A stretch of 64,000 bases of DNA from Balanoglossus misakiensis (GCA_040954595.2 CM082582.2:9167483-9231482); one strand, 5' to 3'. Numbered from the stretch's first letter, positions 1-55,300 are shown. Program-made: numbers and translations. The notes: a model not told the origin generated them from the letters alone.

Positions 1-7169
<7,169 letters not shown>

Positions 7170-10335: not shown

Positions 10336-10740
10336 CTATCTCTCTACAAAGTCGTACGCTTGGTTCCCTAGGTTGTACACGTCAGAACACGGCCGGCAAA
10401 AGCAATCCTTGGCTGCGTGAGCGACGACCGCTTTGGACGTCTTGAGATAGGGGCAGCGGAGCACGACGGTGGTGGCGCGCTTGCTGAGCGGCGCGCAACA
10501 GGTGCAGTCCTCGCGGTAGATCAGGCCTTGGTCGTAGTTGCTCCAGAAGGGTTCGCTGCGCGACGGACACGAGCCGCGGCACGCTGTGGTTGGGATGACC
10601 CGCGGGATGCAGCCTGGGTGACTGACGACCATCTGGGCCATGAAACGACGACACTCCGCCGAAGATGACTGTGGGTATATCACCATGACGACAAGCACAA
10701 CCGAGAGAATCCTCTGCGCCGACATTGCGTATTCCCCCAT
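10336..10740 (-). CDS. Secreted cystine-knot hormone, bursicon-alpha/Norrin-like. 134 aa from ATG 10740 (alternative ATG 10725); single coding exon; probable 5'-UTR intron 10797-11610
   Basis: Hydrophobic signal (RILSVVLVVMVIYPQSSSA), then 11 Cys in the pattern C-13-C-9-CxGxC...CxCC...C...CxCxxC. PGCIPRVIP and CFCRPC resemble bursicon-alpha. Minus-strand acceptor tttttttcag at ~10797, donor gtaagt at 11610, polyA AATAAA at ~10117-10122. Confidence 0.85.
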   Translation of the reverse strand: MGEYAMSAQRILSVVLVVMVIYPQSSSAECRRFMAQMVVSHPGCIPRVIPTTACRGSCPSRSEPFWSNYDQGLIYREDCTCCAPLSKRATTVVLRCPYLKTSKAVVAHAAKDCFCRPCSDVYNLGNQAYDFVER

Positions 10741-12239
10741 CTGGGTTTCTCTTCTGTCCAGTAATATCAGCAAGGAATATTTTCTCGGCGAATATCCTGA
10801 AAAAAATAATAAAGGCAAATTGAGCACGCTTGTACTCAGTGAAAAAGTCACACAAATCCAGCTGAGTGCCCGGGGGTAAAATTTTCGTTTTGAAAATTCC
10901 AAAGACGACCATTGGCATTCCCGTTGGACAAATGCACGGACCGCCATTGGGCCCAAGATCAGTAAATTTCTGGTGCAATTGTCCTCCGCCGTTTTAAACA
11001 CCCCAAGGTGCTTGTTCGACTTTTTTTTCACTCTGGTGGTATCAATGTCATTGGAGCGGCATGCGTACTTGTTGAACGCCGTACACGCACTGTAAACTCA
11101 CGCATTCCACACGGACTGTCATAACTACAAGGAGCTGTTATTAAAACGGCAACGGTGAATCTGTCTCTTTCGCGTTGAAGGCGACACGAGCTATATGTGG
11201 CGCGCATGCAGCACTTGAATTAGGCTTATCCACAATTTTCACAGCCACTTCAAACGACCTCCGGTACATTGACGCGAGATGGAAAAGAAGACCCGGACTA
11301 GCTCGAAAGTAACGTTCTGGATACAAGTAAGACCGTGACTTTCCCACCACGGCACCAACACGCAAGACCTAACGAATTTTCTCAATACAGTCAGTGAAAC
11401 TTCCTGGCAGCAACGCGATTACTTGATCCTAACTTGACGCAAAAAAGGAACATGATGATCACGAAAGCTGTAAGATTATTTTTTCTCACTATTTCAGTTC
11501 AATTTTGCGCTTCTGACATCTACAGGCGACGATCAACGCTTAGTAGCGCATACATTTCCGACGATACATTTTACCCGGTTTTCAAGCACTGCTGTAGAAA
11601 AATAACTTACCGTTGCAAAGCAGTGGCGTGCCAAATGTCGCTCCTATACTAGTTTAAGACAGTTCAGTGATGTGACTCAAGAAATGAAAACTGTCAACTT
11701 GGTTGAGTTGCAGTCCTGCTATAAACGATTCCGCGAAGAACCGCCTCCGTTTGGCTGCAGTGACGTACGTGATGCCCTGCGTCTGTGGGCGTGATTGACT
11801 TGGCAACGGAAGAAGCTAGTGCCATGGCAACAAACATGTTCATCACCCACTATTTTCATCCCTCCATCTCTCTCTCTCCCTCCCACCCCTCTCTCTCTCG
11901 CTACCCCATGTATGCAATCATGCATACATACATTTGTAGTTTAATACTTCATATTGTGTTTTTAGAACACTGGTTGGTAGACTAAATGAACAGATCCCAG
12001 CGACGTCACGACCACGGCCAACAACATGCAACGTATGGTTCGAGTCAAGCGCATTAAGTCCTCCCCGACTCCGTCCGCGTGGAACATCCGGAACTAGGAA
12101 TCGACAGCGATAAGCACGTTGCAATGTTTTGGACCAGTATCTGGGCATTTGTTTGTAGGCTTTGAATATTAACTTCTTGTAATCAGCGATTTTCTCACTG
12201 ATTGCTCGAGGGGCGGGCGGAAAGATAAATATAGCGCAA

Positions 12240-14830: not shown

Positions 14831-15929
14831 CATGTGGATATAAAACTGGTCGGCAAACATGTTATTTTGTCGCAGTTATTTTATTTAATTGGGCAATATC
14901 GGCCACGGGGACAACGACTGTAAATGCTGAGCTCAGCTAAACAGTTGCCAGTAATTGGTTCGAAATGCGAAACGAGTCGTCAGTTTACGTTATTGTGTAT
15001 ACTAGTACGTAGTGTTAATGAGCATGAAATATCATATTTGTCCTCGAATTTCTTGTATATTCACGACCAGGGTCGATTTCTCGTACATGTAGTTATACAG
15101 CACCTACAGAGTATCGTGTAGGAATTGGCTATCCGAGAGTAATGCACGTTAAAGTTCAGTCGAATGTGGAGTACGTAGCACAAGGATTCATAAAGAAAAA
15201 ACAACAACGGAAAACGGGACAGCAGATAATTGGCGGGAAGCCCCCGAAAGCGACAGGGAAATGAGAGGGAAGCAACAAAGGTGTACCACCATACTGCCTA
15301 CACCCGAACGCTATCAAACTCTTCAGAGAGCCCACTGCATATCACACTAATTATCCAAAATTTCGGCTTTTCTTCAGTTATTCGAGAACATAGCCGACTA
15401 AACCATGGAAACTTGAGGCAGAACTTTTCTGAATGAAGATAGGCACAGTGCACATTTTGTTCGATATGTCGGATAATTTTAAAAGGCATCGGAAATGGCC
15501 ACGTGGACTGATCTGTGCAGCTTTCGGAAACGGACGCAGAAGGGAAGGAAATAAATGGCTAAAACAGGCCGAGTAGATTTTAATAGGGCTTAGGATGCGC
15601 ACATTCGACACAAGAACTAGTACCGTAACAACAATCTTGCAGTTTACAGAAAGTAATATATTTATTTCGTCAGGCGAACAGAATAAGGCAATCTCGTGAA
15701 AATGATACAATCGTTGAAAAACGTGTCCGGTGTTTTAATCTATTCAGATCATTTCTAAGATAGAAGAGTAAATGCTCCCTTATAAGGCAAACAAGAGAGA
15801 TCAGCACTTTCATATTGGAAAGAAATAATAACGGTAGTATATATTGGGAAAATAAATGCTTGAAATGATGCGGGGTTGACGAATCGCCTGTCCTCTTCTT
15901 TCCCAGACTGCAGTGGCACAAATTGTCGG

Positions 15930-16547
15930 TTAAGACCCTGGTCCATATGTGTAACCTGGGTTAGCAAAGGGTGCTGGGAAAAAGAAGAAAGCGACGTGAT
16001 CAGTTAACGAGGTAGTATTGCAAGACGGAGCATGCTGGGTAATAGATATAGCGATAGATAGATAGGTATAGCGTCACTATGTTAAAGTGGAGTTCTGGCC
16101 AATCACAGATTATCACTGGTGGCCTCGCAAAATAAAGTGCGTCACCACGTAGCAGTAAGAATACTCGGACACGCCCTTTTAACCATACATTGGCATACAT
16201 GTACATGTACGTGAATTAGAGGTGAATATATCCCTTTTAAACCACATAAGAAATTTTCAGTCTGGTCTTAATTTGTATCATGATTCTGCATCAACTCAAA
16301 CTGTGTTACTACTTTTAAATGCCGACATATCCATATGTATAACAAAATAATAATAAATACCCCCCCCCCCCCAACAAAAGAGTACGTGCTTAGCCTCACC
16401 GTCACCCCCATCATCCCCGTCATCCGCATGATCAGAAAATGTTTGTGGAGCAGCCATAGCTCTAGCCACTCTGTCGTCTGCCGAGCCAGAAGTGGCCGTG
16501 ACGGTCAGGAAGACCAACAGCCCGAGAACCAAGACGTGTTTCCACAT
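15930..16547 (-). CDS. Small secreted peptide precursor A, 63 aa: MWKHVLVLGLLVFLTVTATSGSADDRVARAMAAPQTFSDHADDGDDGGDAPFANPGYTYGPGS. Coding exons 16547-16400 and 15973-15930
   Basis: Signal peptide. Donor G|gtgagg at 16399 and strong acceptor ctttcttctttttcccag at 15974 (phase 1). The spliced frame ends in TAA and its C-terminus matches paralog B. Probable 5'-UTR intron 16577-16687; polyA AATAAA at 15661-15666 (minus). Confidence 0.8.
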
Positions 16548-19428
16548 TGTCACTGAAACTTGTCGAATCCTGAAATCTGCAAAAGATGAAAATGTTTGTG
16601 AGAACGCACCCAACATAACGATACGTCGTGTAAAGCATGACACACATCGTTCCTCCGTACGTTTGCGTGAGATAGCTGTATACTCACTATGTTGGCAGAT
16701 TTGTCCACTGTCCACTGGTGATTTCCTCTGAGACCACGACCCATTTTAAGCTGAATTTTCTATGACGTGAAAAAAAATTCAAAGCGACGCAAAATAAATG
16801 GATCAATTTGTAATATTACACCAATAATATTTTGCTTCTCTTTCATCACCTATGTAGTTTTCCTGACTCGCCTTAATAGTATTTGCATACCACCTTAAAA
16901 ATCACAAAGGGCTTATTTACTTTTGGCGGATATAGCGCTATATTATTTTCACATCATTCATCCGAAATGAAGAAGAACTTCGCAATGAAATTGATAAACG
17001 CATGCCATACAACAACACACCATTTCCAACTGACGAAAAAAAAGTTTTTATATAACCAACATGTGAGTATCAATTTGTGACTGTTCTTCCCCTCAGGACA
17101 GTTCTAATGAGTGACTGTGTGGTCAGACTCTCGTGGCACTTTGCCGTTTCCATTGGAACTCATTAGTGCACGGAAGATGGGGGGGGGGGGGAGCGATCAA
17201 CCGCAAATTCGGCGGTTTCGTCCGTGGAAACGTCGTTTCTCTCGATCGCACTTCCATACGACCACTCAACGCTAAAAGACAACTTGTGCGTTTGGCCCTC
17301 GAAAGTGACGCCACTCTATGACGACCGTGGTTTGACGAACGCGTCCACGATTACTATAGCAACGCACGCACTAGCGTCCACTTCAGATCACTTCTCTCGA
17401 AAAGGGACCGTTTTCCGCCCCTCTTATCTATATTTCATGAGTTGAAAATACCCTTCGGCGAAACTCAAAAACCCAGTTGAACTGTCGATGTTGCCTACGA
17501 GGCTGACATTGTGTATACTCTTTGCATGCGACCGTATATCTGTAAAGTCGAACTTCGGTTTGTGCCGGATCGACTTTGGGCACGCATGAGTTGTAGGTAG
17601 AAAACATGCTATATAATGTGGACAATTCGATTTTTAAAAGTAGGGCATGAATTCGAATTTGCTAATCCTCGGAAACGACAGTTTTCTAGGCACTTAGCCT
17701 CCCACAAGTATGGCGAGTCAATTAGAAGCTTTTAAACGTGGCAATCGATGTATCTCTGGTCGCTATGTTAACCAGCGATACGCCGTTTGTGCGTTGCCTT
17801 CTAATTTGATTCTGATCCATGAAGACAACCAGATGATCAGTAAGTGGAAAGCGGTCAATTTTCTCCTTTTTTTCTGGTAGCATTTAGCAAACGAACAATG
17901 ATTGCCGGAGAACAGTGGGAGGTTAGAAGTGTGAATCTATTAGATGTGTTCCAGTCGAACGACGGCGACGGTGTTATCACCAAAGGTGATAAAAATGCAT
18001 TATGACAGCATCCGTGATATTAATAGTAGGGCAAGTAACGAGTAGAAAGCAACTCGATAATAACTGACGTCATCGACGTGAGAATCAAAACCACCAATGA
18101 TACATGCAGGTGACAGTGATTTGTCGATTAGAGGACCAGAAATACAATGGACGTACAATTATAAGAAGGTGAATTGGGACTTGAATGTCTTGAAATAAAA
18201 ACTTAGAAGCGAAAAGTATACGCAGAGACAATTATTTTTTACAGCCCCTCTCATGTGCAAACCTTTTGTTGTGGTATGAACCATCTGTCTGATTCATTGT
18301 GATGATATACATTTTGGATGGTTCAGCCAGTACTTTGGTAAAACATCACGTGATATGAAGAAAGACGACACTTTTAATCTAACATAAAGAAATCAGAAAA
18401 AATGCAAAACTCCATCGCAGTACTTGCCAATTAGTAGTTTTTGTTTGGAAAACGAGTAATATATGATAATAAAATGCGATTTTATTTTTTTAATATCAAG
18501 ATGTAAAAGAGGTTCATTAAATACAGCGAGAAATAAAATTCCCTTTAATGATGCCGATTTCAATGGTTTTCATGGAAAATACATAGCTACCCCGTTTTGC
18601 GCACATGGCGATGTGTATTTCTAACATGCCGGACATGTAAGAAGACATTGTTATAGTAAAATCGCTTGTCTATTGGAATAATATTTAATTAGAAGGTTTG
18701 ATATAAACCGCCAATAGAACAACAGAATGGGAAACATGACGTAGACGCTTTAAGTTGTTTTTGATAATTATTGTTCAAAATGATCAAAATGTTATCTCCG
18801 TAGTGTGTGTTTCGTTAAACCAATAGTTGGTTACTGTAATCGTTCGGAGCTATTTTAGCAAATCCTCATTCAATGTCTTTCTATTGATTGAATGATCTGT
18901 GAAAGTGGTTGTTTTTGCAAAGACGTAAGAAATTGCCGCGTTATCAGTTTATGGTCAATAGAAATACATACTCTCTAAACACGCGCTCTAATGCAAAGGG
19001 AGAGATTCGCTTTGATTTTGAAAGACGGGAGTCGCTTTTGCATAATATTTTGCCAAGACAAAACCATGTATTCACCGTTCCGGAGACCGCTTGTAATTTT
19101 ATATTTTGTTAATTCTGAGAGTATCGCACGGGGCGTGTGCAAAAGGACTGGAATTCAAATAAAAAAGGGGCATCGAGAAAGGGGGAGTGATCATTTTTTG
19201 ACCTACCAAATCTGGTGACTAGTTGACAGCCGAAATAAGTAAGTACCATAAAGTATGTCACTGTTGCATGTAGTATGTAGTTATAGTTAATAACTGGCAT
19301 TTCCCAACCACCACTTTAGGGATATGGTAAGGGTCAGTCCAGGGGTGGCCCTCCTATGAACCAATCGAATGTCAACTTCAATCGATTTTTGATTGCGAAA
19401 ATGTCTCCATTTGTTGTGAGGTGGTAAA

Positions 19429-19980
19429 ATGTGGAAACCCCTGGTTGTGTTTGGACTCCTGGTTCTGCTGACAGTTGTAACTTGTCGAGAAGATGATGCA
19501 AGGGAGGCCAGAGCAAGTGAAAAGACTGATAAAGGCGGGAAAACGGGCGTCGGGCGTGTTCAAGGTGAGGGCAAAGTTTCAGTCTGCATTCAAGTGAACT
19601 GCAGTTTCAGGGCCGTAGACTGTTGCGGCGCGGGGAAGGGGGGGGGGGGTATTACATTTCGTTTCTTGAATCGTGCATACTTATAAAAAACATATGCTTT
19701 TGCTATTTTGTACAAAACGTTATGGAATATGGTTTTATATCTCCTACCAAATGTGATGAATATCGGGTCAACTTGCAATAAGACACACCCCGTCGGGGAC
19801 AGATTTTCGGAATAATGATAGGCCACCAAACCTTTCAACCCTGGCTTGAGCCAACCTAATACGTTTTGCCAATAGTAGACAGATTTGCAATTATCGACGT
19901 CTATTTTATCTTTTTATTTTACAGACGATCCCACACTGGAGTTTTACAACTCTGGCTTCACGTATGGTCCATCTAGTTAG
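19429..19980 (+). CDS. Small secreted peptide precursor B, 63 aa: MWKPLVVFGLLVLLTVVTCREDDAREARASEKTDKGGKTGVGRVQDDPTLEFYNSGFTYGPSS. Coding exons 19429-19564 and 19925-19980
   Basis: Signal peptide similar to A (MWK..V.GLLV.LTV). Donor G|gtgagg at 19565, acceptor tttttattttacag at 19924 (phase 1), stop TAG 19978-19980, polyA AATAAA at ~20170. Confidence 0.8.
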
Positions 19981-22900
19981 TTGCCAACTATAGACTGTCG
20001 GCACACCAAACGGATTGTAAAATTTAGCCTATAGCCTGTTGCACGAAATGGTGGATTCAGACAGAACTGCCTCAATCCGGACGGCGTTCTTGTTCGCATC
20101 GTCATGAATGTGGGGGTGGTGCAAAACGTTCAAGTCCGTGTAATTTTCATACAGCAGATTCACCACAAAAATAAAATAGCACTTGTGTACTTCTATCAAT
20201 CGAATTTAAGACTCTTGTGTGTCATCATTTTAAATGTCAATGTTTTGAGACATCATTGAGGTATTGACCTGTCAGTGGGTGTTTCGGCTTCGCATACATA
20301 CACATTGTAAGGATTTAATTGAATTATTTACGTAAAAAAGACCTTCGTTGCGAAACAAACAAGGTAAAATTATAAACAAATAAAAATAGAAGTAAAGCAA
20401 ACGACCATGAAAGAATCAATGAAGGGTAAGGTTGACAGGTCGTATGAATTTGCATATTACACGTGCTGCATCTGTTGTTTGTGCACCAATCAGCGCTGCG
20501 GTTGTAAAAAGATTGGGTATCCTGGATGGTGAACGCGTATTTTCTGCATACCTGGACATTACAAGTCAGTGTCTCGCGGTCGCAGTTTCTGCCAGTGTTC
20601 AGAGTAGCTTTGACTCGTGTATATAGATAGTCACCGTTCTTACTAGTCCGTTGTTGGACCTATCAACGTGCATATCAGTCAAGGACGAGGTTCATCATGC
20701 CCAGTGCCAAAAGCAAGTAGCCAATGTCCACGAAGCCGGCCATTAAGGTACTCACTATGTTTAACATCAGCCAATTTTCATTTGCTCCGTCGCCATTCTG
20801 TTGGAGACTTGCGAGTTTGCACTTTATTCAGAGGTTATAAGCGGCAAGCGATGGTAAAATATTTGAGTGTGGATACAAGATCTCTCGGGTGAAAATAATC
20901 ATTTACAAGTACGTTTTAAACTGAATCGTTGTTGATTACAAGGAAAAGTAAGAAATGGGAATTTAGTTATTTTTATGTTTCAGGGTCAGAGGTGAAATAG
21001 ATGATGAAAATATTGCATCAAAAGGCATCCTTACTATAATGTAACATCACGTATCATTTCTAACAGTCACGAAATTCTGTTATTTTTAGTTAAAAATAAG
21101 TCAGTAATTGTTGAAGGTTCCAATCTGTTGGCAAATCGTGACAGTTTTTTTTTTTATCACAGAACAAAAATAACATAATATAAAGCGTACAGTAGGTAAA
21201 ATCATTGAAACTGAATCGCAATCTCTGTCAAAAGACACAAAAGATTGCCGATAGGCGAGGAATTAGTCAAATCCATAAAAAAATGATAAATATCCTGAAG
21301 ATTCTCAAGTAGATAAGCAAACACCCCTTCAAACCTTTCAACGACCTTTTGTAAGCAGTGGAATACAAGAAGATTGAAATTTTGACCTTTTCCGATATTG
21401 TTGTCTAGGAGATGTGCAGATTCTTCAATAGATCGGCAAACTTTTGAAGTGCTGAGAGAATGAGTCATTCAAGGTTTATGACATTTCATAAGCTCTTGTT
21501 ACGCCTACCCCGATATGGTGGTTTGCAAGATCTTCACTTGTTGGGCTCAAAGTTTCGATAGATAAAATGACGACGCAGAAGATATTAAATTTGAGCATTT
21601 CTAGAACTGCAATATTGCATGATATTGATTATCATTAATGTTAACATTAATTTACCCTATTTCCAGTATATGGCTTCCCCCTAATCATTTTTCATAGCCC
21701 CTTTTATGGGTTTCATGCAAAGATTATAAATCTGACCATTTCATCACAGAAAGCAAAGTTACAGTGCGCGAAAAATCACAGCCAATTGATATCAAAACAA
21801 AACAGGAAATTCACCACCATACTAGTAAGTTGCTTGCTTGGGCTAGAGAAAAATAGTATTCCTCAGTATTTGCAAAGCAACAGAAGTAGCAAGTAAAATG
21901 TTTCTGTTTTTTAACCAGAGAAATTGATCAATGATTTCATGACACTGAATGCTTGGTAATTGCAATGAGAATAGACGCAAACACAAAATATTTGATCAAG
22001 AAGATTCTAAGGTAGTTTGCACCTCCAAAATCAGTCTAACACTTTTAAACAGGTGCCATCTATCGATGACATAAACATGAAAACAGTGCCATTTTGAATT
22101 GGAAAAAAAAATAATTGGAAGAAGTAGACACAGTGATCCGAGGTACTTTGTTTTATATTTTATTTTAAGACGCATCTTGAAATTCAAGACTACATGATTG
22201 TGGACATAGACATACATTGAATTTGTAATATTGCCACACGACTCTTGTGTCAATTTATTTTTCTTCTTTAGTCGGGTGATCCAAGATGGCCGCCCTTTGC
22301 CCACAGATGGTCACATGGTCATGGCAGACTGCAAAGATCAATGGCTGCAATGGCGATTATGGTGGAAAAGGGCAGGAAATGTATGACAAGTGGTATATTG
22401 GACAAAACAAAACTGAAGAAATTAAATTCTATGAGGATATACAGTTGTATATCGCCCTGAATTACAAAATAGAATCTTTCATACGACACTACCGGTAATT
22501 ATGTCAGCCGTTGTACCAGACAAAATTGCACTTCGTGTGGGGAAATCTATTCCTTTGTTATAGTGTTAATGTCTTCTAATTTTGTTAAAATCACAGGAGT
22601 TAGACTGCAATTACTCTCTCCCATGGATGGCACACATTTAGTTTTCTTGAAAGGCAGACTCTATAAAATAGAATTCAATTAAATCATATATTTTTCTCTT
22701 GAAATTACATCTCCCAATATTTTAATCAATTAGGAAAAAGCCAAGTTACATTTAGCTGCTGGTATGGTCCAAAGTTTTCTGTCAGAAAGACTGAATTACA
22801 CACAAAAACAAATTTCTTAGGCATGGTTTTACTTGCCTTTAATTGAGAGGCTAAGGAGTCTCAATAAATGCTGGTCCCAAACGGCCACTATTGAAATTGG

Positions 22901-52361: not shown

Positions 52362-55300
52362 TTATTTCTTTTCTTCTTTACTTTCATTCTCCGCGTTTCC
52401 ACCGGCGGGACTTGGGGTATCTGCGCTATCAGCAGCCTTTTCCTCCTGGAAATGAGATCACAAATCAATCTGAAAGAAGTTCTGCAGAGTGTATCGCGTT
52501 TCAGCTGAACCACAGGCATAGAGACAGGACGACTATAGCTGTTTCATTTGCAATTTCAAAAACATATATGCCTACAGCTGTGTTTGCAGATTCAATAGAG
52601 CATTATCTACTCTGAAAATTAAAAGAAATCTATTTTAAGGCAGTGTTTATCAAAAACGCACACGCTAAGAGTGTTCTTGCCATATGGAAGCCATAGTGCT
52701 ATTAATAATAATGCCCTGGCACCAATCCACTGTTTACTTTTTTCGCAAAAACATTCAAACACAATTTATGTTGATGAATCAAATTATTACCTTTGGTGCT
52801 GGTTCCTTAAGAGGACTGAGCACAACTTTTCCAATGTTTTGTCTGTCATGCAACTTCTGCATAGCAGCACCAATCTATGGGAGAAGAAAAATTCCAAAAT
52901 TCAGATATCTTGGAAGATTTATTTTTCCCCAATGATATGCGTAGGTTGACTAGCACATTTCAAACAATTTAAATCCTACAGAATGTTCTCAAAGAAAACA
53001 ACAAACAAACAAGAGTGCTACTCACCTCTTCGAATGCAAACACAGAATCGATTACCGGTTTGATTTTGCCAGCTTTGAACATGTTGGTCAGTTCAGCCAT
53101 CACTTCTCGCAGGACGTCCACACGACCTTGGGCGAAGATGAGGTTTTGCAGCATAAAACCCGAGATGGTTTTGTTCTCATCGTACAACTTGATTGGGTTG
53201 ATCTTGTCAACCTGCCACCACTGTTGATGAAATAACGAATGAAACAGGATTTGAATTCACATCTCACAGGAAATGCTGGCAGATGTCTGCATATCATTAG
53301 ATTATAGACTACACACTTTATTTTGTAGGAATTTACAGCATCTCAACTATGATTGTGTGACTTTGAAAAAAGCAAACTTACTGCTTTGGCAAAACTGAAG
53401 AAACTTCTTGTCTCCCCGGTAACAACATTGGAAGAACCTGTTCCAAAGAAAAGACAATTTTACTTGGCAAAATTTATAATAAAATTTGGAATTACATGTA
53501 CTTAGAGATGTAAAGTAAATTTGTACCATAAATTGATCAAATACCGCAGAATTTATTTCATCCACTGCTTCCAATAAATGATCAGAATTTCTGTTTCTAT
53601 TTTTTGATTTGTTTAAAAAAGGAACCACTCAGAATACGTTCTCTTCCTCCACTCCTCGCAAAAGGAAGAGAGGAACGTTCATCAATGATCAAGGGCAAGT
53701 TGCCGTGAGGCAACACCCGAGATCCGCTTCGCGCTCAGAAGAGAACGTTATAGCTCGTCATCATGGTTTTGGGTGCCCCCAAGTTTATGGGAAACTCAGA
53801 GTGGATACATACTATAGAAATGATCCCTAAAAGTATGATCTTAATTCCAATATGGCGTTTCATAGCTTAAATAGCAGGAGCTAGAAACATTAACTACGGT
53901 TTGATGTCAGTGAGCTAATGTGGTAAATATAACTCTCCTGACTAATTTATTGGACTATAAAACGTCAATTTTCGACTAAAATCTAATTTATAACTGAACT
54001 CTTATTATTTTCTTATCTGACCCTGAACCATAACATCGATGTATATGTCTTTTTCGGTCATTTTTGCACTCCTAGCAGGATATTCAAATTTATTTAAAAA
54101 TACGCAAGGTCATGAGTTCACCCTTTAACCTTGTTCACGTGACTTGTCAGCTGATCGGTAAACAGACTGTGCTGCATGCCCGACTACTGTACCACTAGCT
54201 TCTACACAGAATCGTGACTGTCTCCGTGTGCGTAAAACTATATTTACAGGTAAGACACATTTATTAACGTCGCAGTCGCTTGGGAATTGAATTGTATACA
54301 CGGCAATCGCGCCTACGACTTAGAAAAGTGTATCTTCATTTATTCCACGGTCGGTCCGTTGTGGAGTGACCGTGTTTATACTGAGCTAAGTTTTGAAGGA
54401 ACTGTGATCTGACCCTAAAACCGGCCCCATCTTCTCAGTTTTCGCATGCCTTAAGGTCAGTCATGGAATTTATTTTACCACAGTTGCACCCCTATGGTTC
54501 AATAGTGCTTACTGTAGCTTGATGCAGGGGCAGCCCTCAGTAAAGGGTGCCACGCCCCCCGGCCTTAGAGAGTGTGTCGTTTTTCACATTTTCAAAACCA
54601 ATAGTCTAAATCTACATCGCTGAAAATGCACGATCACTTCAAGAAATGCAACTGAGGCCTCTCTATAATCAAGTGGTCTATCCATTAGGGGTCATCCAAT
54701 TAACCCCGTTACTCTAACTTTGCCATATTTTCAGTGCACTTTCCCATGATTCCTTGGGGTATTTCCATCCTTGAACGAAGTCTTTAATACTTTGTATATA
54801 TCATATTTCTACACAAAAGCAAGACTGCCCAAAGAATGTATTGTCTCTTGTGTTTCAATCACAATTCAACGTTTAAAATGTATTGGTGCTGATTGTAGAC
54901 CTGCAGGTATAAGACCAACAATAGCAAAATGGTATGGTGTTGACTGATAAGTTTCAAAGGGGGAACAGTACCGTGGGTGTAGAGTTTCTGACATGCTATA
55001 AGAGATAACCAAAGTAGGCTTTCTTTTTATGATGGTCAGTGACATCTTTCCCCTCAAACACATCTTTCTCAGTTCTATACATTCATTGTGATTATTGTCC
55101 TTTCATTTTGTATTCAGTTGGTATTTTCTCCCAAATTTTCCAACACACATGCACAATATACTTACCAAAGAGAATATATTTGCCCATTGGTTTGAGCAGG
55201 CTGATTCCTTTGTTTGTATCCTCGCCACAGAGACAATCAAGAACAAGGTCCACGCCTTCGGGTGAGATTCTGATGAAATTTAATTAAAAAATCACCGGAA

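Follow-up and report, generated by a model that had tools for sequence, protein, structure and literature searches.

A divergent pair of predicted 63-residue secreted precursors with a shared C-terminal tail: a candidate signalling-peptide family in an acorn worm

Most of the ambulacrarian neuropeptides described in PMC4772807 and PMC10508912 (in part) come from precursors with a dibasic site and an amidation signal. In hemichordates, which express PC2 as well as many neuropeptides (PMC10508912, in part), the neuropeptides have mostly been found via similarity to known families or via repeated dibasic sites. Orphan lineage-specific candidate precursors are commonly reported in ambulacrarians, as in the Arnp series of starfish and the 20 precursors PCNP1-20 of crinoids, and specialists have named acorn-worm orphan peptide receptors as a gap (PMC9400282 and PMC5818035, in part). 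The closest architectural analogue of the genes described here is the Drosophila pair sex peptide/Dup99B, two paralogues with a diverged first coding exon that contains the signal and a short conserved second one; the second exon of sex peptide encodes the receptor-binding part, and the last residues of the mature peptide of about 36 residues bind a GPCR (PMC11017328, in part).

In a window of 64 kb of the Balanoglossus misakiensis genome, the whole stretch of DNA analysed here, we found two genes, A and B, that resemble sex peptide and Dup99B in being a paralogue pair with this two-exon layout and in the predicted length of the mature peptide. The pair differs from them in showing no sequence similarity and no W-x(n)-W motif, in having introns of 360-426 nt as against 51-75 nt, and in carrying a pro-piece with R-x-A-R. 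Sex peptide/Dup99B is an architectural analogue only.

Anatomy and surroundings of the two genes

Genes A and B are divergently oriented, with 2,882 nt from ATG to ATG. The first coding exon of gene A, read from the sequence of the minus strand (16400-16547, ATG at 16547), is 148 nt long, ends in phase 1 and contains the signal peptide, an acidic pro-piece, R-x-A-R-A and a variable acidic region. It is followed by a predicted GT...AG coding intron of 426 nt (15974-16399, phase 1) and by the last coding exon including the stop (15930-15973), in which the conserved 12-residue tail occupies 15968-15933. On the plus strand, the first coding exon of gene B (19429-19564, ATG at 19429; 136 nt, phase 1) precedes a predicted GT...AG intron of 360 nt (19565-19924, phase 1) and a last coding exon including the stop (19925-19980) with the tail at 19942-19977. 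Both introns are multiples of three in length, and each predicted splice product is 63 residues long. The acceptor used in the model has the best polypyrimidine tract among the candidate acceptors listed in either gene (18/20 pyrimidines, nine candidates, in gene A; 16/20, eight candidates, in gene B). An alternative in-frame acceptor of gene A, at 15956, would give 57 residues and retain only the final eight residues of the motif.

The arrangement, the 2.9-kb distance and the splice models given in a preliminary description of this DNA were reproduced from the sequence. Its proposal of a 5′-UTR intron in both genes stands for gene A, which has a probable, well-formed intron of 111 nt (16577-16687, minus strand; predicted from sequence), and is ambiguous for gene B, where a possible intron with its donor at 19239 may end at 19319 or at 19420 (19239-19420, plus strand). 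AATAAA does follow both genes as it had noted, as candidate polyadenylation signals 264 nt past the stop of gene A (15661-15666, minus strand) and 190 nt past that of gene B (20170-20175, plus strand, with another at 20379), and adds little because the hexamer is common in this region (14 occurrences on both strands in 5.3 kb around the genes).

The N-termini of both precursors are signal-like, with a hydrophobic core (best 10-residue mean 3.4) and no acidic residue among the first 15. The predicted signal peptides, placed from hydropathy with the cleavage point judged by eye, span approximately residues 1-23 of gene A (16479-16547, minus strand) and 1-19 of gene B (19429-19485, plus strand). 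The window holds 527 frames that start with ATG and reach 35 residues or more; four of them are signal-like and only two, genes A and B, also contain R-x-x-R; the signal criterion is a hydropathy filter whose thresholds were chosen knowing the two genes. The predicted convertase sites R-x-A-R, at which cleavage is inferred, lie at residues 26-29 in gene A (16461-16472, minus strand) and 25-28 in gene B (19501-19512, plus strand). Neither precursor has a dibasic KR/RR site or an amidation signal, unlike most of the ambulacrarian neuropeptides cited above.

The neighbours in the window are a C2H2 zinc-finger gene, a single-exon DAN/cystine-knot gene and genes with Cys/Met-metabolism, NOP9, UPF0489, PRMT5 and GroES-like dehydrogenase domains. 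We noticed no gene for a receptor in the 64 kb. An exon of the NOP9 gene is 71% identical to that of Ptychodera flava, 70% to that of Glandiceps talaboti and 64% to that of Saccoglossus kowalevskii, and 40-44% to those of amphioxus and sea urchin (8 matches among 464 candidates). These values point most likely to an acorn worm (enteropneust hemichordate) other than the three annotated ones, as none of the matches listed was identical.

Several other features of the window are recorded here in their own right. The single-exon secreted cystine-knot gene (10339-10743, minus strand), 5 kb from gene A, matches the Pfam families DAN (1.8e-08) and Cys_knot (1.2e-07), and its nearest solved structures are NBL1, Norrin and Gremlin; no homologue was found at E ≤0.001 among four candidates from a collection of 5.8 billion. 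The gene may therefore have diverged or have escaped annotation, and may be hormone-like or BMP-antagonist-like. Divergent from it is a frame of 66 codons (11452-11649, plus strand) with a moderately hydrophobic start, RRR and CC-x6-C-x4-C, which has no Pfam match, fails the signal-like filter and may have arisen by chance. A signal-like ATG frame of 42 codons lies at 53863 (minus strand), and an open frame of 681 codons (250-2295, minus strand), antisense to a GC-rich zinc-finger exon, is likely a shadow of codon bias. A palindromic CRE is located between genes A and B (18065-18072); the window contains two such sites, a number near chance.

Selection on the pair and the search for relatives

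Global alignment of the two proteins gave a BLOSUM62 score of 96, the maximum in 5,000 shuffles being 20. Their last 12 residues are identical at eight of 12 positions (score 47), whereas a score of 28 is the next best that any of the 71,313 12-mers from all six reading frames of the window attains. The 64-kb window showed no third copy.

Codons were compared in three ungapped blocks covering 41 of the 63 codons; picking these blocks on the protein alignment depresses pN to some degree. Differences reach saturation at silent sites (pS 0.76) but not at replacement sites (pN 0.25; Fisher p=1.3e-6 against silent sites), identity at codon positions 1, 2 and 3 being 30/41, 30/41 and 16/41. Even within identical residues, 11 of 14 fourfold sites differ. 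Shuffling the 5′ and 3′ flanks gave scores as high as the real ones in 167 and 76 of 200 cases, so that the flanks carry no similarity beyond chance, and the conservation of the coding parts is therefore not due to recent duplication. Taken together, saturated silent sites, held replacement sites and unalignable flanks indicate that the duplication is old and that selection has acted on the protein. Purifying selection has kept three places, namely the signal peptide, R-x-A-R-A (conserved despite the silent-site saturation) and the last 12 residues, while the middles of the precursors are unrelated in sequence; this is the pattern that the preliminary description had reported, and both the alignment and the codon comparison bear it out. 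On this sequence evidence, A and B are real, old and selectively maintained genes for small secreted precursors, with predicted splicing.

The only similarity between the two introns is a 16-nt element, G12-TATT, identical in intron A (16356-16371, minus strand) and intron B (19638-19653, plus strand) and lying 27 and 73 nt past the donors; its score was reached by none of 200 shuffles. The two elements are two of the nine long G-runs in the window. They are identical although silent sites are saturated, and are possibly a retained intronic splicing enhancer.

Searches of protein collections gave no relative. A word-index protein search with the gene A exon returned no candidate, and a HMMER profile of both first exons had no match at E ≤0.001 among 1.84 billion proteins, a collection of annotated proteins that takes in Ptychodera, Glandiceps and Saccoglossus. 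In simulation, this profile search found 198 of 200 relatives at 70% identity, 157 at 60%, 59 at 50% and four at 40%, and at the same library size full-length A and B match each other only at E ~0.2. With a sensitivity reaching to about 60% identity and annotated proteins only, the result speaks against a close relative that has been annotated, and leaves room for one that is distant or lacks annotation. Neither tail had a match in Pfam or PDB at E up to 10. The Pfam model DUF4576 (PF15144) was rejected, as it reached 17.7 bits against a cut-off of 27 and aligned, within the signal region, with the exon of gene B but not with that of gene A. The ESM Atlas gave no usable match for the gene B exon or the gene A tail, and Rfam none for 14.5-21.5 kb. 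A degenerate DNA motif had two matches in JGI metagenomes, neither of them behind a signal-like start or resembling the present genes in shape, and these were taken as chance.

In the literature, seven-residue pieces of the tails were absent from open-access full text (figures outside the search), and shorter pieces retrieved only papers unrelated by title, which were set aside. The tail motif was absent from the supplements of PMC10508912 and PMC9793003, had partial matches only in the consulted portions of the supplements of PMC6188537 and PMC5627052, and was not found in the texts and supplements on starfish and crinoid orphan precursors. As far as sequence can tell, the pair thus matches no named family in the collections and literature searched, in agreement with the initial impression. 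The best reading is that the pair is probably lineage-restricted, the word family resting on two paralogues in one genome.

Proposed function and alternative readings

We hold, with a little better than even confidence, that A and B are two 63-residue secreted precursors of non-amidated peptides of 34 and 35 residues, whose tail probably contacts a receptor at the cell surface, a GPCR being the most likely one. Both genes would be transcribed and spliced in neurons or gland cells, and the signal peptide would send the precursor into the ER and the secretory path. A furin/PC-type convertase would then cut off the short acidic pro-piece behind R-x-A-R, a sequence in line with the minimal furin/PC site. 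A cut after the second Arg would release a Cys-free peptide with a free C-terminus, of 34 residues from A and 35 from B (the latter counted by hand); these counts agree with the lengths first proposed. Peptides as short as these are likely disordered. The conserved tail, in which Gly and Pro accompany two or three aromatic residues, would be the receptor-binding part, although it could instead bind a non-receptor partner. The middles are unlikely to be the binding part because they are unrelated and differ in charge; they may set stability, range or receptor preference.

To judge from their sequence, A and B most likely form a family that is new although genes of this general type are familiar, and work as a signalling-peptide pair. 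Single-copy, non-amidated, intron-split precursors of 63 residues would slip past gene predictors and past both filters by which hemichordate neuropeptides have mostly been found. Two short synthetic peptides would suffice to screen the acorn-worm orphan peptide receptors. If the pair is limited to acorn worms, it adds one more orphan lineage-specific peptide; if it is active on a receptor that is conserved, one gap in the table of bilaterian ligands and receptors is closed.

It is also conceivable, and we regard it as unlikely but worth serious weight, that the genes are real and secreted and that their products are exocrine, serving in mucus, in defence, in the gamete coat or as pheromones and acting externally or on a non-GPCR partner. 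Exocrine peptides too may have a short acidic pro-piece, a single R-x-x-R and no amide. Fast-evolving defence families are unlike a pair under strong purifying selection with only two copies in the window. A membrane-lytic antimicrobial function is at odds with the net charge (-6 for A, -1 for B), the lack of Cys in the predicted mature peptides and the lack of an amphipathic stretch. What speaks for gland products is that the hemichordate epidermis is highly secretory (PMC13554239, in part) and that sex peptide, the closest architectural analogue, is itself one (PMC11017328, in part).

We consider it quite improbable that A and B, rather than being the signalling peptides of a new family, are strongly diverged members of the galanin/allatostatin A, GnRH or calcitonin/DH31 families. 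Shuffle tests of the tail gave p=0.025 for its resemblance to galanin 1-13 and, for that to starfish GnRH, p=0.003 when both paralogues are summed and 0.024 when the weaker one is taken; these values fail multiple testing because the motifs were picked afterwards from dozens of families. In brittle stars, precursors that we read as calcitonin-type have a Cys pair behind KR and end in Y-G-P-G followed by basic residues (PMC5627052, in part), and receptors of the AstA/galanin type have been reported in hemichordates (PMC9263205 and PMC4489612, in part). Against this, the tails of A and B score 47 with each other and only 20-34 with these families, neither tail has a Pfam or PDB match at E up to 10, and the defining features fail in each family.

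The boldest version, which we rate as very unlikely, is that A and B are the missing ambulacrarian ligands of the hemichordate galanin/AstA-type receptors, with a galanin-like core moved to a free C-terminus. We keep it in view because hemichordates are reported to have receptors of this type and the word galanin is absent from the main text of the starfish, crinoid and Saccoglossus inventories; if true, a deuterostome invertebrate would connect the galanin of vertebrates with the allatostatin A of protostomes. Least probable of all is that details of the models are mistaken or that one of the two genes is dead, with other acceptors used or the genes unexpressed: the introns are multiples of three, alternative acceptors exist and the upstream exon of gene B is ambiguous, but two independent best-tract acceptors open into homologous tails ending at stops, and neither frame is broken although silent sites are saturated.

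Comparison with known peptide systems

The tails of A and B contain N, G, an aromatic residue, G and P in the order of galanin residues 5-13. Counterparts of the galanin pharmacophores Asn5, Gly8, Tyr9 and Gly12 may be present in order in the tails, but the stretch from Asn to Gly is one residue shorter and the shuffle p of 0.025 is a value before correction; at the place of the pharmacophore Leu10, both tails have Thr. The active motif of galanin has to sit at or near the N-terminus and to include Trp2 and Leu10, and GALP carries the galanin motif behind an extension (PMC3516677, in part). In A and B, the motif instead forms the C-terminal last 12 residues, with no Gly1/Trp2 start and no Trp in the tail. 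The tail also fits the aromatic-x-aromatic-G of allatostatin A, which needs F-G-L/I-amide (PMC12509031, in part); A and B differ from allatostatin A and buccalin in having no L/I-amide and ending in aromatic-T-Y-G-P, two further residues and the stop.

With starfish GnRH (ArGnRH1), the gene A tail shares six identities over 11 columns with a two-residue gap; gene B matches far less. GnRH, an amidated peptide with a pyroglutamate at its start, directly follows the signal (PMC4772807 and PMC4923880, in part), while A and B, unlike GnRH and corazonin, have neither the position next to the signal nor the pyroglutamate, the amide and the dibasic site.

The predicted length of 34-35 residues and a tail near Y-G-P recall calcitonin/DH31. 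A and B end in G-P-G-S-stop and G-P-S-S-stop, not in Pro-amide with basic residues; the middle of gene A is Asp/Gly-rich, and the predicted mature peptides have no N-terminal Cys pair and hence no disulfide ring, in contrast to calcitonin. To our knowledge, DH31 has no such calcitonin-type N-terminal ring.

Motilin, osteocalcin, chemerin and pedal peptide were rejected with matches of three to five residues in the wrong place. In echinoderm bombesin-type precursors, the peptide lies beside the signal peptide and contains PRxN and RIFGPxx-amide (PMC12002301, in part); these defining features are absent in A and B, and starfish bombesin gave a shuffle p of 0.11. The LWDY peptides of acoelomorphs come from a multi-copy precursor with a Trp-Asp-aromatic motif (PMC6188537, in part), and with some of the copies in the portion consulted A and B share only a trailing Y-G-P-S.

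The Arnp and PCNP precursors that we read carry dibasic sites and Cys or an amide, unlike A and B. What the pair has in common with them is its standing, as lineage-restricted candidate neuropeptide precursors without known relatives.
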